Positions 3 to 14,462 of a stretch of 21,429 nt of DNA are shown in pieces. The position numbers and the translations under genes were made by a program. How positions within the stretch are numbered: position 1 is the first letter of the stretch; each line of letters starts with the position of its first letter. The stretch is from IMG/VR virus record IMGVR_UViG_3300014059_000004; one strand, written 5' to 3'. The stretch comes from a virus. The notes below the pieces were generated by a model that saw nothing but the letters and a program-made list of their open reading frames with translations, did not search any database and was not told the DNA's origin.

Positions 3-170
3 GACATCATCAATGTCTGCCGGAGTGAACTGTTCGAGATGATTCGCGAGGATCTCGACGCAGTGAAGTGGGACGAGCTCGACTTGGATGCCGTTGTTGC
101 ACACCCGATCGTCCACAAGATGATGGTGGAGCACCTCCGCGGGATCATCACTGACTTCACCGGGAAGTGA
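3..170 (+). CDS. 3' fragment of upstream gene (5' truncated by window)
   Basis: Open frame from the window edge; product ...DIINVCRSELFEMIREDLDAVKWDELDLDAVVAHPIVHKMMVEHLRGIITDFTGK. The TGA stop at 168-170 lies inside the first GTGAA box. Confidence 0.45.
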   Translation, partial: DIINVCRSELFEMIREDLDAVKWDELDLDAVVAHPIVHKMMVEHLRGIITDFTGK

Positions 171-202
171 ATAGTCGCTCCTGAAAGAGGTATACTAAGA
201 TC

Positions 203-370
203 ATGGACAAGCCCACCAAGAAGAGCAAGCGTGAGTTCATCCTCTGTCCCATCTGCGGTGCACGGTCGAAGAAGCTCTCATCGGAGTTCGGTGGTCTGGA
301 GACGCGGATGTGCACTGGCGGGTGCATCTTCAAGATCGACACGTGGATGAAGAAGCGAATTCGTCTGTGA
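203..370 (+). CDS. 55-aa zinc-ribbon-like small protein (CPICG...CTGGC)
   Basis: ATGG at 203 sits 6 nt after TATACT of the conserved unit; product MDKPTKKSKREFILCPICGARSKK...CTGGCIFKIDTWMKKRIRL. Below the ORF-track length cutoff. Stop TGA inside the next GTGAAT box. Confidence 0.6.
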   Translation: MDKPTKKSKREFILCPICGARSKKLSSEFGGLETRMCTGGCIFKIDTWMKKRIRL

Positions 371-402
371 ATCTTCACTCTTGAAAGAGGTATACTAGAA
401 TC

Positions 403-657
403 ATGGCGACCAAGAAGACCAAGAAGCCCGCACCCCAGCCCACCGACCTCGAGGCGGCGCTGAACATGCAGCTCGCAGAGGTCACAGAGGATGAACTTAC
501 CGCGGACGACGTGGAGACTGCGAGCAATGCAGAGAACTTTCTCTGTGAATTGATGCGAGCGTTCTACGGTCGTCCGGACATCTACAAGGTCCTGGAAACT
601 GCTGCGAACCTGTGCGCAGACATCCAGGCGCGAGGCGAAGAGCTCGATCTGGTGTAA
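403..657 (+). CDS. 84-aa acidic hypothetical protein
   Basis: Conserved promoter unit 367-405 followed by ATGG; ORF-track ORF; good GC3. Confidence 0.7.
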   Translation: MATKKTKKPAPQPTDLEAALNMQLAEVTEDELTADDVETASNAENFLCELMRAFYGRPDIYKVLETAANLCADIQARGEELDLV

Positions 658-727
658 TTCAGTCGCTCCTTAGCTTATACTGTAATCCACCAACGGACTT
701 CGACAGTCCACTGCAAAGAGAGAACGC

Positions 728-1000
728 ATGAACGTTTCGTTTTACCAGAAGTACCAGGATGTCATGGATCCCAGCCGGTACGTGGTTCCCATGCAGAAGG
801 GTTTGCAGAAGGGTTACCTCGACTGCCGGGTGTACTTCGATCGCTGCTTCGTCGGACGTGCCGAGATCTCGGAGTCGCTCCTGACCAACGAGGACGTGGG
901 CTTCAAGCTTCAGTTAACTGAAGAGCACGGGGTCGCAATAGCGGCAATTGCCTCGGTGGAAAGCCGAAGACGCAGGTTCGAATCCTGCCCCCGTGCCTAA
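728..1000 (+). CDS. 90-aa hypothetical ORF whose last ~25 codons overlap a tRNA-like element
   Basis: ATG preceded by AAGAGAG (SD-like) on a ~40-nt leader from TATACT at 676-681. The C-terminus ...SVESRRRRFESCPRA is the tRNA T-arm read as protein, so coding status is doubtful. Confidence 0.3.
   Translation: MNVSFYQKYQDVMDPSRYVVPMQKGLQKGYLDCRVYFDRCFVGRAEISESLLTNEDVGFKLQLTEEHGVAIAAIASVESRRRRFESCPRA
908..923. repeat. 16-bp perfect palindrome CTTCAGTTAACTGAAG immediately 5' of the tRNA-like gene
   Basis: Direct reading: CTTCAGTT and AACTGAAG are reverse complements. Confidence 0.8.
926..996 (+). tRNA. tRNA-like gene with non-canonical anticodon arm (candidate anticodon GAA)
   Basis: Acceptor 5' CACGGGG (926-932) pairs 7/7 with CCCCGTG (989-995). 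D-stem GCAA/TTGC with GG in the loop. T-arm GCAGG-TTCGAAT-CCTGC (972-988). No encoded CCA. The anticodon arm is imperfect: one C-A mismatch, G at position 33, a 3-nt variable loop, and 71 nt total. Confidence 0.45.
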
Positions 1001-1010
1001 GGATTCACGC

Positions 1011-1286
1011 ATGTCACGGTCAAAAGACGAACACAAGCTCGTCATCTACATCGCCACACCTCTTCGATGGCTCTTCTTCGGGCTCTACGATCCGCTCTTG
1101 TGGTGGGCCATGAAGCGGGTGACGAACACCATCAAGGTTCTTGTTCCTGACGTGGACATCACACGGTACCGTGAAGCAGGCGCTCTTGTCCTCGTGATAG
1201 ACGGCGAAAGAGTGGGTCAAGTCGCCGAGGCAGTCGGACATGTCCACGTTTGGATCGTCTCTTCGATCCAGAAGATCTGGTTGTAA
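1011..1286 (+). CDS. 91-aa hypothetical protein
   Basis: ATG with AAGGA 8 nt upstream, directly after the tRNA-like gene. GC3 about 65%. Competes with antisense ORF 1020-1364. Confidence 0.45.
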   Translation: MSRSKDEHKLVIYIATPLRWLFFGLYDPLLWWAMKRVTNTIKVLVPDVDITRYREAGALVLVIDGERVGQVAEAVGHVHVWIVSSIQKIWL

Positions 1287-1287
1287 C

Positions 1288-1536
1288 ATGGAACTCCGCT
1301 GGTTTTCTTTGCTTGCACTTTCGCTCGTCGTTTCGATCCTGTTTGTCATCGGCCTGTGGCTCAAAGAGCCGAAGCCCCCGCGAACCGTGAGGAAGATCGA
1401 ACGGACTTACGGACCTGACGGCGAGCCTGGTCCTCTACCACCCAAAGACCAGAAGTGGTTACATGAATCCCGGCGTTCTTTTTATCCTCTTCTTTGCAAT
1501 CCTCGGATTCGTCGGATTTGCGGGCGCTCTCGTTGA
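1288..1536 (+). CDS. 82-aa small protein with N-terminal transmembrane helix
   Basis: MELRWFSLLALSLVVSILFVIGLWLKEP...; internal ATG of track ORF 1240-1536, chosen because the hydrophobic segment starts there. Confidence 0.4.
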   Translation: MELRWFSLLALSLVVSILFVIGLWLKEPKPPRTVRKIERTYGPDGEPGPLPPKDQKWLHESRRSFYPLLCNPRIRRICGRSR

Positions 1537-12990: not shown

Positions 12991-13205
12991 AACCCACGAT
13001 CCAGCTGCTCATTGCGGTTCTCCTGTGGTCTGCTGCCTCAGCTCTCGTCATGGGCGCGGAAGGAAACCCAAGCCACTGCGAGAGCATCAGGGACGCAGAC
13101 CGCCGACACTTCTGCAGAGCCGTCACGATCCCGCGAGCTTCTGAGTGCGAGCTGATCAGGAGCGCGGACCTCAGAGCAGAGTGCAGAGCTCGAGCCCCGA
13201 GATGA
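12987..13205 (+). CDS. 72-aa secreted Cys-rich small protein (signal peptide plus 5 Cys)
   Basis: ATGA coupling; N-terminus MKPTIQLLIAVLLWSAASALVMGAEG looks like a signal peptide. Confidence 0.55.
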   Translation: MKPTIQLLIAVLLWSAASALVMGAEGNPSHCESIRDADRRHFCRAVTIPRASECELIRSADLRAECRARAPR

Positions 13206-13233
13206 ATACTTAGCCCAACACGGTCGGACCCAG

Positions 13234-13270
13234 AGACTTCAAGTCTGGTTTCAAGTGCAATCCCTGAAGT
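13234..13270. promoter_or_regulatory. Operator-like cluster: 13-bp palindrome AGACTT-C-AAGTCT plus two further GACTTCA(A/G)G-related half-sites
   Basis: Palindrome at 13234-13246; TTCAAGT repeated at 13250-13256; CCTGAAGTC (13262-13270) is the reverse complement of GACTTCAGG. Sits immediately upstream of the extended -10 TGGTATACT of gene 13291. Confidence 0.45.
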
Positions 13271-13290
13271 CGTTTTGGTATACTAGAGAC

Positions 13291-13692
13291 ATGGACATCA
13301 ACCAGCTCCAGTACGCCCCGCGGGTCACTCGTGTTTCCCTGGGTAAGTGCAGCTCTGTCGACTTCGTGGTCTTGCTCCTGGCCCGAGCCGGTGAGCAGGG
13401 CATGGCAGTCAAGGACATCTACGCTGCTTACTGTGCATGGCGCGGTGGTGTGCTGGGCCGCAATGGCCAAGACAGCCGCATCACCTACTTCTTCGCTCGT
13501 GAATACGGTCACATCTCGGTGAGTTGGCTCGACACCCGCCATTCGCTGGGCAATCCTGGTTACTTGTTTGGCAACCATCGCACCACGCTGTGGTACCGGG
13601 TGTCCCGTGGCGTCTATGCTCTCAACGTCAACGGCCGTGCTCGGGCCGAGGTGATCGCAACCACGTTACCGTGCAATCGTAGCAGCTCTTAG
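13291..13692 (+). CDS. 133-aa hypothetical protein, possible helix-turn-helix DNA-binding
   Basis: ttTGGTATACTagagacATGG; I rejected the N-terminal extension. The segment SSVDFVVLLLARAGEQGMAVKDIYAAY resembles a helix-turn-helix (weak, by eye only). Confidence 0.6.
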   Translation: MDINQLQYAPRVTRVSLGKCSSVDFVVLLLARAGEQGMAVKDIYAAYCAWRGGVLGRNGQDSRITYFFAREYGHISVSWLDTRHSLGNPGYLFGNHRTTLWYRVSRGVYALNVNGRARAEVIATTLPCNRSSS

Positions 13693-13706
13693 CTTATACT
13701 AGACTC

Positions 13707-14135
13707 ATGGACATCACCTCCCTCATCGGCAAGTCGGTTGGCTTCTGCGGTGTGGACAACAACACGTTCTGCCTGCAGGACTCAGTTGGCAATCGTCTCG
13801 CCTTCGAGGCAGTCGAGAACCCGGACGACGGCTACCGTTCCATGATGGACGAAGTATGCGTCTACCATCTGCCTGCAGACAAGATCTTCTTTCACCGACC
13901 GATCGTCACGGTGACGGTGGAGCGCGATGTCGGTCTCGACTACATGTCTGACGGTTACCGGCTGGTCGACAGCACCGGTCACGTGTGGCTCCGGTTCGGG
14001 ACGGACACGACCGACAACTACTACCCGATGTTCATCTTCGACTACACGCCGCCTCGTGTCTGCGCTGTCCACGAGGACTGCCGAGCAGACTTCGGTCTCG
14101 CTGCTGCATGCGCTGGGGTGAACCTGCCGAACTGA
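13707..14135 (+). CDS. 142-aa hypothetical protein with C-terminal C-x2-HEDC motif (shared with 8387-9241)
   Basis: Unit ctCTTAGCTTATACTagactcATGG; C-terminus PPRVCAVHEDCRADFGLAAACAG. Confidence 0.7.
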   Translation: MDITSLIGKSVGFCGVDNNTFCLQDSVGNRLAFEAVENPDDGYRSMMDEVCVYHLPADKIFFHRPIVTVTVERDVGLDYMSDGYRLVDSTGHVWLRFGTDTTDNYYPMFIFDYTPPRVCAVHEDCRADFGLAAACAGVNLPN

Positions 14136-14153
14136 AGAGGGTATAGTAGCTAC

Positions 14154-14441
14154 ATGGCCAAGGTAACGTACTCAGTGACTGCGCTAATCATCTGCACCTG
14201 CTGCCCGTGCTGCGGTCACGAGGAGAGCTGCGAGGACGGCAAGGTCTTCTCTTCGTGTTCTGGTCTGACAAGCCTGGAAGCAGCGAACGAAGTAGCGAAG
14301 AGCTACGCAGTCGACTTGGCAGGAACTGACGACGAGATCTGGATCAGGGTCGATTCAATCGGACCACGCGGGGGACGGAAGACAGTCTGGCAGCAGAGCG
14401 TGTGGATGCTGAACACGTTCTACGTGAACAGTCACCCTTGA
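14154..14441 (+). CDS. 95-aa Cys-rich protein (CTCCPCCGHEESCEDG...)
   Basis: Variant unit cTGAAGAGGGTATAGTagctacATGG. Confidence 0.65.
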   Translation: MAKVTYSVTALIICTCCPCCGHEESCEDGKVFSSCSGLTSLEAANEVAKSYAVDLAGTDDEIWIRVDSIGPRGGRKTVWQQSVWMLNTFYVNSHP

Positions 14442-14462
14442 AAGAGGTATACTAAGATCATG
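14424..14462 (+). promoter_or_regulatory. Representative promoter unit GTGAACagtcacccTTGAAAGAGGTATACTaagatcATG
   Basis: -35-like GTGAAC at 14424-14429, stop TGA 14439-14441 inside the TGAAAGAGG box, TATACT at 14448-14453, ATG at 14460. Confidence 0.6.

Follow-up and report, generated by a model that had tools for sequence, protein, structure and literature searches.

Promoter-like units placed for leaderless expression precede the small genes of a large uncultivated phage

The uncultivated virus record IMGVR_UViG_3300014059_000004 raises the question of why dozens of small plus-strand genes are each preceded by one and the same 39-bp unit, and what reads it. The stretch of DNA analyzed here in its full length (hereafter, the window; 21,429 nucleotides, 54.6% G+C) sits on a 92-kb contig assembled from run SRR1145916 and carries, between positions 167 and 14462, an array of units in which an upstream box (GTGnAn) is followed by a -10-like hexamer (TAnnnT) ending just before an ATG start codon. 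Comparison with related viral contigs leaves little doubt that the units are promoters, and their geometry makes it probable that the transcripts they drive are leaderless, starting at the A of the ATG.

Geometry of the array

Pattern scans of the window combined with open reading frame (ORF) calling, on which the coordinates of all promoter units are based, recovered 36 plus-strand units of fixed geometry (GTGnAn, 18 nt, TAnnnT, 6 nt, ATG) within positions 167-14462 of the whole stretch. The strict pattern GTGNA-N19-TANNNT-N5-CATG matched 34 times on the plus strand of this interval and not once on the minus strand, with 0.00 matches expected from 100 dinucleotide-preserving shuffles; relaxed rules, allowing a 17-nt spacer and the box ATGCAA, added units 6484 and 10607 (named, as below, by their first position) to give the total of 36. 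When the hexamer was omitted and GTGNA was only required to stand at a set distance from any ATG, 36 matches were found at exactly 36 nt, against one to six at each of the other distances between 25 and 49 nt and none on the minus strand, and TAnnnT filled the hexamer slot in 34 of these 36. The original prediction had spoken of about 40 units and proposed that their number and spacing be checked by a motif search; the scan bears out both, the 36 being joined by two ATG-less units (652-681 and 4937-4966), one unit with a 7-nt gap (19091-19130) and one about 90 nt before the window start (L012 position 1491), and all the examples and degenerate variants it had quoted were recovered in place.

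The hexamer is TATACT in 24 units, TACAGT in five, TAAACT and TAAGAT in two each, and TAGTAT, TATATT and TATAGT in one each. As had been predicted, the gap between it and the ATG is 6 nt in every one of the 36 units, which leaves no room for a Shine-Dalgarno sequence. The upstream box reads GTGAAC (12 units), GTGAAT (8), GTGCAA (8), GTGAAA (4), GTGTAA (3) or ATGCAA (1), and the predicted -35-like spacing of 17-18 bp is found throughout, with 18 nt between box and hexamer in 35 units and 17 nt in one, within the 17 ± 1 bp of sigma-70 promoters. The economy of sequence noted earlier is real as well, since the stop codon of the preceding gene lies within the box in 15 units and at -21 to -19, in the TGAAAGAGG stretch, in five others (20/36). 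The box is nevertheless kept where no stop is needed, namely in units 2655, 6206, 9256 and 11036, which follow hairpins, and in all GTGCAA units, so it is not a by-product of stop codons.

The 36 unit ATGs open ORFs of 53-284 codons, all of at least 53 codons, a length reached by only 24% of the other plus-strand ATGs (n=126), and the G+C content of the unit-led ORFs by codon position is 0.59/0.44/0.71; judged by these coding signatures, the unit-led ORFs are genes. Two homologue pairs align from residue 1, at about 35% identity. No Pfam family was found in the ten largest window proteins, and PHROGs assigned window proteins only to families of unknown function. Array genes that have no unit start in overlap with the preceding stop (ATGA at 7555, 11861 and 12987) or a few bases after it, and a few of them show a purine-rich stretch 5' of the start.

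The features of the region are listed below, each unit being given as box, spacer length, hexamer, distance and start codon.

167-205, plus strand: unit GTGAAT-18-TATACT-6-ATG; ORF 203-370, 55 aa
367-405, plus strand: unit GTGAAT-18-TATACT-6-ATG; ORF 403-657, 84 aa
652-681, plus strand: ATG-less unit GTGTAA-18-TATACT, followed by a leader, the doubtful ORF 728-1000 and tRNA-Phe
926-997, plus strand: tRNA-Phe, about 245 nt 3' of ATG-less unit 652; found by Rfam
1819-1857, plus strand: unit GTGAAA-18-TAGTAT-6-ATG; ORF 1855-2223, 122 aa; L030 homologue aligns from residue 1
2220-2258, plus strand: unit GTGAAC-18-TATACT-6-ATG; ORF 2256-2543, 95 aa
2550-2635, plus strand: long hairpin at gene end (z -5.4), a possible transcript-end or stabilizing structure
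2655-2693, plus strand: unit GTGAAC-18-TATACT-6-ATG; ORF 2691-2951, 86 aa; box not serving as stop
2956-2994, plus strand: unit GTGTAA-18-TATACT-6-ATG; ORF 2992-3327, 111 aa
3324-3362, plus strand: unit GTGAAT-18-TATACT-6-ATG; ORF 3360-3686, 108 aa
3635-3673, plus strand: unit GTGCAA-18-TACAGT-6-ATG, within the end of the preceding ORF; ORF 3671-3898, 75 aa
3895-3933, plus strand: unit GTGAAC-18-TACAGT-6-ATG; ORF 3931-4224, 97 aa
4221-4259, plus strand: unit GTGAAC-18-TATATT-6-ATG; ORF 4257-4445, 62 aa
4428-4466, plus strand: unit GTGAAT-18-TATACT-6-ATG; ORF 4464-4697, 77 aa
4698-4736, plus strand: unit GTGAAT-18-TATACT-6-ATG; ORF 4734-4940, 68 aa
4937-4966, plus strand: ATG-less unit GTGAAA-18-TATACT, followed by about 410 nt of non-coding, tRNA-like sequence
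5847-5885, plus strand: unit GTGAAC-18-TATACT-6-ATG; ORF 5883-6152, 89 aa
6156-6199, plus strand: hairpin GATGATTAAAC/GTTTAATCATC at gene end (z -1.8), a putative transcript-end structure
6206-6244, plus strand: unit GTGAAC-18-TATACT-6-ATG; ORF 6242-6487, 81 aa
6484-6521, plus strand: unit GTGAAT-17-TATACT-6-ATG (relaxed rules); ORF 6519-6809, 96 aa
6811-6849, plus strand: unit GTGCAA-18-TATACT-6-ATG; ORF 6847-7086, 79 aa
7088-7126, plus strand: unit GTGTAA-18-TATACT-6-ATG; ORF 7124-7558, 144 aa
7820-7858, plus strand: unit GTGCAA-18-TAAACT-6-ATG; ORF 7856-8107, 83 aa
8061-8099, plus strand: unit GTGCAA-18-TACAGT-6-ATG; ORF 8097-8348, 83 aa
8351-8389, plus strand: unit GTGAAT-18-TACAGT-6-ATG; ORF 8387-9241, 284 aa; L002 homologue aligns from residue 1
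9169-9249, plus strand: long hairpin across the end of ORF 8387-9241 (z -6.7), a putative transcript-end structure
9256-9294, plus strand: unit GTGAAT-18-TATACT-6-ATG; ORF 9292-9531, 79 aa
9528-9566, plus strand: unit GTGAAA-18-TATACT-6-ATG; ORF 9564-9746, 60 aa
9743-9781, plus strand: unit GTGAAC-18-TATACT-6-ATG; ORF 9779-10099, 106 aa
10082-10120, plus strand: unit GTGAAA-18-TATACT-6-ATG; ORF 10118-10435, 105 aa
10296-10334, plus strand: unit GTGCAA-18-TACAGT-6-ATG, inside ORF 10118-10435; ORF 10332-10589, 85 aa
10607-10645, plus strand: unit ATGCAA-18-TATACT-6-ATG (relaxed rules); ORF 10643-10981, 112 aa
10933-11017, plus strand: three hairpins at the end of ORF 10643-10981 (z -4.0), a putative transcript-end structure
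11036-11074, plus strand: unit GTGCAA-18-TATACT-6-ATG; ORF 11072-11287, 71 aa
11284-11322, plus strand: unit GTGAAA-18-TAAACT-6-ATG; ORF 11320-11514, 64 aa
11511-11549, plus strand: unit GTGAAC-18-TATACT-6-ATG; ORF 11547-11864, 105 aa
12120-12158, plus strand: unit GTGTAA-18-TATACT-6-ATG; ORF 12156-12461, 101 aa
12458-12496, plus strand: unit GTGAAC-18-TAAGAT-6-ATG; ORF 12494-12796, 100 aa; left breakpoint of gene replacement relative to L074
12793-12831, plus strand: unit GTGAAC-18-TAAGAT-6-ATG; ORF 12829-12990, 53 aa; right breakpoint of the replacement relative to L074
13255-13293, plus strand: unit GTGCAA-18-TATACT-6-ATG; ORF 13291-13692, 133 aa; gene not in L074, crossover inside unit
13671-13709, plus strand: unit GTGCAA-18-TATACT-6-ATG; ORF 13707-14135, 142 aa; partner of unit 13255 in the crossover
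14118-14156, plus strand: unit GTGAAC-18-TATAGT-6-ATG; ORF 14154-14441, 95 aa; gene not in L074, crossover inside unit
14424-14462, plus strand: unit GTGAAC-18-TATACT-6-ATG, last of the array; ORF 14460-14666, 68 aa
14675-14765, no strand assigned: GC-rich hairpins in the convergent gap closing the array (z -3.7), a putative bidirectional terminator
19091-19130, plus strand: unit-like promoter GTGCAC-18-TACAAT-7-ATG, heading an operon with a sigma-factor gene 10.6 kb further on, outside the window

Two overlaps among these ORFs deserve mention. ORFs 10118-10435 and 10332-10589, both unit-led, share 104 nt in different frames, which is either a genuine overlap or an assembly frameshift, and the 90-aa ORF 728-1000 overlaps tRNA-Phe (926-997) on the same strand and is probably spurious or shorter than called.

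Promoter anatomy and leaderless placement

A conservation profile, numbered with the A of the ATG as +1, was built from 34 window units and 274 units of relatives; T-12, A-11 and T-7 were preset by the search pattern, and -10, -9 and -8 vary. The box GTGnAn occupies -36 to -31 and the hexamer -12 to -7, the middle hexamer positions carrying 0.1-0.7 bits of information in relatives. Conserved positions outside the preset ones are G-14 (32/34 window units and 254/274 in relatives) and C-1 (34/34 and 248/274), the latter closing six purine-rich bases after the hexamer, while T-15, which completes the extended -10 TG at -15/-14, is found in 3/34 window units and in 106/274 units of relatives. The consensus in relatives reads GTGCAAAGT(T/C), G-14, TAnnnT, AGAACC, ATG(G/A), with a box of 9 bp, GTGCAAAGT, at -36 to -28. 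The G at -14 pointed out in the original prediction is accordingly a conserved position, but the surrounding GAAAGAGG stretch is not a conserved family element: within it relatives keep only G-14 and, more weakly, A-18, GAGG is not kept, and the stretch is therefore not a conserved ribosome-binding site. The T-A-n-n-n-T rule, a spacing of 17-18 bp, G-14 and a pyrimidine-purine start seven bases past the hexamer are hallmarks of recognition by a sigma-70-family holoenzyme.

The comparative result that decides between a promoter and a translation signal is the placement of the units before tRNA genes, where in relatives the same box and hexamer stand directly 5' of the gene without any ATG:

L035: box and hexamer before tRNA-Asn, gap between hexamer and tRNA 10 nt
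L015: box and hexamer before tRNA-Lys, gap 10 nt
L056: box and hexamer twice, gaps 21 nt to tRNA-Thr and 12 nt to tRNA-Lys
L024: box and hexamer before tRNA-Lys, gap 12 nt
L021: box and hexamer before tRNA-Leu, gap 19 nt

Such a placement argues that the box is a transcription signal and not a translation signal. Clusters of up to 12 tRNA genes are interspersed with promoter units in L002, L014, L021, L024, L036 and L056, and other ATG-less boxes in relatives sit 5' of leaders carrying AAGGAG. As RNA, the units themselves do not fold (z -0.7 and 0.0). Taken together, the in-silico tests (TAnnnT profile, G-14, C-1/A+1, tRNA placement, 6-nt distance, no RNA structure) agree with the earlier proposal of a self-contained bipartite promoter placed for a transcript start at the ATG, and that the units are promoters is considered very likely. 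Each unit would then be a complete bipartite promoter of the sigma-70 family type, consisting of the box, an 18-bp spacer with G-14, the -10 hexamer and a discriminator ending in C; it would occupy the whole intergenic space, so that the stop of the previous gene is often written into the box, and each small gene, or pair of genes joined by an ATGA overlap, would receive a transcript start of its own.

The position of that start was approached through 401 distinct boxes from about 60 loci on about 30 IMG/VR contigs. The distance from hexamer to ATG is 6 nt in 307 of them, 5 nt in eight and 7 nt in nine, while 65 have no ATG within 3-11 nt of the hexamer, about 50 of these being estimated chance matches. 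The trinucleotide at +1 is ATG in 308 cases, GTG in three and TTG in none, and C-1/A+1 is the commonest dinucleotide (298/401). The AUG requirement of leaderless translation is strict, and a need for a 5'-terminal AUG would predict both the narrow distribution over 5, 6 and 7 nt and an almost exclusive ATG; the same distribution matches the narrow start-site window of sigma-70 promoters. For Deinococcus-Thermus, experiments identified TANNNT located 6-7 bp before the ORF as the -10 region of leaderless genes and found its positions 1, 2 and 6 irreplaceable (PMC12340547), and leaderless transcripts are common in mycobacteria and corynebacteria (PMC4633059, PMC3890552). Transcription in the array would thus be expected to start at the A of the ATG, the seventh base past the hexamer, and to yield an mRNA with neither a 5' leader nor a Shine-Dalgarno sequence, whose 5'-terminal AUG the ribosome would need to recognize, as is known in leaderless mRNA translation (Brock et al. 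2008, as cited in PMC5312081). As far as sequence can tell, the transcripts are probably leaderless in this way.

Several points weigh against this reading. Intrinsic terminators between units are not enriched (15 found, 15.9 expected), and downstream ATGs must often lie buried in read-through transcripts. The predicted start at the A of the ATG is read from geometry. The upstream element is not TTGACA-like, GTGCAA and GTGAAY agreeing with it at only three of six positions, and a TTGACA/TATAAT consensus scan picks up few units, at 9/12; it is thus not evident that an unmodified host holoenzyme would recognize it. Finally, the discriminator (A-6, R-5, R-4, A-3, Y-2, C-1) is conserved beyond the demands of a simple sigma-70 model.

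Four related structured elements lie at gene ends, at 2540-2650 (z -5.4), 6125-6205 (z -1.8), 9150-9255 (z -6.7) and 10925-11030 (z -4.0), and the array ends with a cluster of GC-rich hairpins (14660-14770, z -3.7); these five clusters, about one every 3 kb over 15 kb, split the array into five blocks. Transcripts are probably terminated or stabilized by these few long hairpins. At the DNA level, the four elements share the motifs GGTGGTTTACCACC, TTAAAC and GTGRGBC, and they overlap ORF 3' ends in differing frames.

Recognition of the units and alternative readings

The comparison with L074, a contig from another sample that is 90-98% identical to the window, revealed one replaced gene (12494-12796) and two genes present only in the window (13291-13692 and 14154-14441), and all six breakpoints of these three differences fall inside units. 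In L074, a junction within GGTATA links the left half of unit 14118 with the right half of 14424, and every junction is a simple crossover inside 10-25 nt that both sides share. Among the sampled relatives, unit-led homologues exist for only 5 of the 36 unit-led ORFs, so the promoters are far more conserved than the genes they drive. The near-identical units double as substrates of homologous recombination, by which single genes are added, removed or swapped. The paired breakpoints of three gene-sized differences, and the near-complete turnover of genes around persisting units, could also be taken to mean that the units are primarily sites at which gene cassettes recombine, in an integron-like system or as a mobile repeat, with their promoter look secondary. 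This is very unlikely: the crossovers are as homologous recombination predicts, the units contain no attC-like hairpin, no integrase or recombinase was seen among the genes called in the region, the strict orientation and fixed distance to the ATG would be left unexplained, and genuine promoters behave alike in the T4-type promoter-early-stem-loop (PeSL) cassettes (PMC2839356).

A fixed distance from start codons, a GAGG lying 12 nt before the ATG in many window units and the lack of terminators between units are features that would also be shared by translation signals in long polycistronic mRNAs, resembling the start-associated sequences of Cluster K mycobacteriophages and using the purine-rich GAAAGAGG as a distant ribosome-binding site. 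Such a role is highly improbable in view of the boxes that precede tRNA genes with no ATG; moreover, relatives keep G-14 of the stretch and not GAGG, a 12-nt distance exceeds the usual Shine-Dalgarno spacing, the hexamer varies according to the T-A-n-n-n-T rule of DNA recognition by sigma factors, and a second conserved element 18 bp upstream has no part in a ribosome-binding model. Promoters for a phage-encoded polymerase that works without sigma, either single-subunit or of the multisubunit jumbo-phage type, are scarcely credible as well. The relatives are of jumbo-phage size and some jumbo phages carry their own polymerases (PMC7598289), but the layout is bipartite, with a variable 18-bp spacer and TAnnnT in place of a contiguous motif, and the 25 most frequent of the 37 Pfam families found in 148 large ORFs of related loci include the sigma-70 family and no RNA polymerase subunit. 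Furthermore, no leaderless transcript was detected in phiKZ (PMC8244752), and AR9 leaders measure 26-491 nt (PMC5312081).

With the promoter reading thus preferred, the question becomes which factor reads the box, possible candidates being the host primary sigma factor or a truncated RpoD-like sigma factor of the phage itself, perhaps with a partner protein. T4 early promoters, which are read by the host sigma factor, also depart from TTGACA in the -35 region. In the Pfam survey of the 148 ORFs, sigma-70 regions 2 and 3 were found in five, and the orthologue on the contig of the window lies at L072 19161-19943 (window-equivalent 29751-30533), 8.3 kb past the window end, in the operon headed by the unit-like promoter 19091, which scores 9/12 against TTGACA/TATAAT and has TG before its hexamer. 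The phage sigma factor (260 aa) aligns with RpoD regions 1.2 to 4.1 (E 4e-51) and scores best against proteobacterial RpoD. Homologues with 66-84% identity number more than 100 and lie on metagenomic contigs of up to 369 kb. Pfam regions 2 and 3 are present, and region 4 is absent, in this protein and in all 120 homologues listed; the -35-recognition helix TRERIRQI of RpoD is replaced by TQEQVEKI (TDEEIEQV in the phage of the window), and the protein ends a few residues further on. In relatives, the sigma gene is followed by a small membrane ORF and then by a 100-aa helix-turn-helix protein with an invariant helix-turn-helix, NYRxIA...MNHSSARNYVLRVMRKF, and an invariant helix, NHSSARNYVLRVMRKF.

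These data allow the tentative view that the units are read by the machinery of the phage: the truncated sigma would bind the hexamer and G-14, a separate DNA-binding protein, for which the conserved helix-turn-helix protein two genes after sigma is the candidate, would read the GTGCAA(AGT) box, and the array would come on as a middle class after the sigma operon, the promoter of which is nearer to the canonical consensus. The sigma gene on the same contig, its missing region 4 and altered recognition helix, and the 9/12 score of promoter 19091 with its TG all speak in favor of this arrangement, as do the conserved 9-bp box, the position of which resembles that of the T4 MotA box, and the helix-turn-helix gene with its invariant NHSSARNYVLRVMRKF, which, to judge from the equal lengths of the longest contigs with hits to either gene, appears to co-occur with the sigma gene and adjoins it in L116 and L117. 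On the other hand, this gene is known from relatives, the DNA examined on the contig of the window ending before its expected position; a sigma factor driven by a unit-like promoter would itself need prior expression; and ORFan genes packed into dense arrays are as a rule early ones, transcribed by the host enzyme. Reading by phage machinery is in any case a refinement of the promoter explanation and not a contradiction of it. A broader and still more doubtful proposal is that of an orthogonal system, in which a sigma factor lacking the -35-reading helix acts with a dedicated box-binding protein and the leaderless design uncouples phage translation from the Shine-Dalgarno pathway of the host. 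The box-binder would be the helix-turn-helix protein, or else a factor that binds the seven GTGAAATTT repeats at 14810-14975 as well, and four ADP-ribosyltransferase-like paralogues adjoining the array (14969-18486) might remodel the host machinery in favor of leaderless translation. If true, it would amount to a new kind of split promoter recognition, coupled with phage-wide leaderless translation, in a widespread clade of uncultured freshwater jumbo phages.

The convergent gap at 14810-14975, between the last array gene and the paralogue cluster, contains seven direct copies of AAATTTCAC, whose minus-strand reading GTGAAATTT resembles the promoter box, together with the palindrome GTGCAAGTTGCAC; no -10 hexamer follows the copies. 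L073, a close relative, keeps the cluster, which did not show up in more distant loci and may represent binding sites for the box-reading factor, or an origin. Another palindrome, a perfect one of 18 nt (GCCAATATATATATTGGC), lies at 18470-18540, in the interval from which the minus-strand paralogue cluster (ATG at 18486) and a plus-strand gene diverge, and TATATT stands 5 nt before the ATG at 18486 on the minus strand without an upstream box, which suggests another start of leaderless type. Within the array, the non-coding stretch at 4967-5380, 3' of an ATG-less unit, is moderately structured (z -1.9) and carries a T-arm-like motif, GGTTCGAATCC. ARAGORN called an 87-nt tRNA-Met at 5227-5313 with an odd anticodon position, Rfam found nothing in the stretch 4900-5420 even at E up to 1, and in the whole window its sole match was tRNA-Phe.

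The phage origin of the array, as originally proposed, is borne out by exact-pattern scans of IMG/VR: the units recur on about 30 uncultivated viral contigs, several of them 211-298 kb long, which places the window within a clade of large genomes of uncultivated phages. Neither megablast of the full window nor tblastn of the 284-aa protein returned anything from 50,697 phage records, while tblastn of an AAA ATPase and of the sigma factor gave distant matches (at most about 41% identity among the records listed) and one further record in the 60-80% band. The related contigs are binned in metagenome-assembled genomes (MAGs) of inconsistent taxa (Proteobacteria, Gammaproteobacteria, Bdellovibrionota, Ca. 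Aquidulcis), and bins from unrelated phyla permit no host inference; the actinobacterial host hinted at in the original prediction is thus not established, the phage sigma also scoring best against proteobacterial RpoD. Several related MAGs bear 'WB' isolate names, presumably denoting Lake Baikal. The Lake Baikal Pseudomonas phage PaBG, which has a similar G+C content, was considered and belongs to a different lineage, its sigma factor being described as without similarity to known sequences (PMC7412058). Beyond the window, L072 11056-11800 (window-equivalent ~21646-22390) holds genes with cREC_REC and HNH endonuclease domains, and the operon containing them has an extra GIY-YIG/NUMOD3 homing endonuclease in L073.

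Relation to known systems

The start-associated sequences of Cluster K mycobacteriophages are short motifs before many start codons, with a core like a ribosome-binding site, and presumably act in translation; unlike them, the phage units have promoter anatomy and also precede tRNA genes. T4 middle promoters combine a MotA box with a sigma-70 -10 element and rely on sigma appropriation. They resemble the units in having a normal -10 hexamer and a conserved 9-bp box near -30 in place of the canonical -35, whereas this phage has a sigma factor of its own with a truncated region 4.2, and no MotA or AsiA family turned up in general Pfam and PHROG scans covering part of the genome. We know of no one-promoter-per-gene array in the Thermus phage phiYS40. 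Its middle and late transcripts, most of a gene class, are made leaderless according to PMC3594737, which cites Sevostyanova et al. 2007. In the phylum of its host, leaderless mRNAs are naturally abundant.

The closest parallels are found in two other systems, one for how the unit would work and one for how the units are laid out. The leaderless -10-adjacent genes of Deinococcus-Thermus, mycobacteria and corynebacteria likewise have TANNNT 6-7 bp before the start, with positions 1, 2 and 6 essential, and no Shine-Dalgarno sequence (PMC12340547, PMC4633059, PMC3890552), the start in the phage array being placed from sequence; they mostly have no conserved upstream element and are scattered through cellular genomes, whereas the phage array shows a strongly conserved box 18 bp upstream, dense units with one per gene, and a stop codon built into the box. 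In the hyperplastic regions of T4-type phages, small non-conserved genes each have a strong and highly similar sigma-70-like promoter, and PeSL cassettes shuffle them by recombination (PMC2839356). The cassettes there serve as breakpoints of insertions, deletions and replacements, as the units do here in the three events relative to L074, but the PeSL promoter is coupled to a stem-loop terminator and its genes have leaders and ribosome-binding sites, whereas the phage units have no stem-loop, hairpins are spaced as far as about 3 kb apart, and the gene starts are positioned for leaderless expression. The array would thus be a second, independent case of promoter cassettes driving modular gene shuffling in phages.

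If the starts are confirmed, a whole clade of large phages, sampled here by more than 300 genes on contigs of up to 298 kb, would express most of its accessory genes as leaderless mRNAs, with a gene boundary free of a terminator, a promoter and a translation start united in each 39-bp cassette. Such a compact and portable promoter-plus-start module, with its natural -10 variants, would be useful for engineering, and the infection would offer a clean natural system for competition between leaderless and Shine-Dalgarno-led translation; the truncated RpoD-like sigma raises the testable question of how a non-canonical upstream box is recognized. Literature searches turned up no account of this consensus, nor of any leaderless promoter array in large or jumbo phages. 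The parent kinds, leaderless -10-adjacent promoters and T4-type early promoter cassettes, are known.

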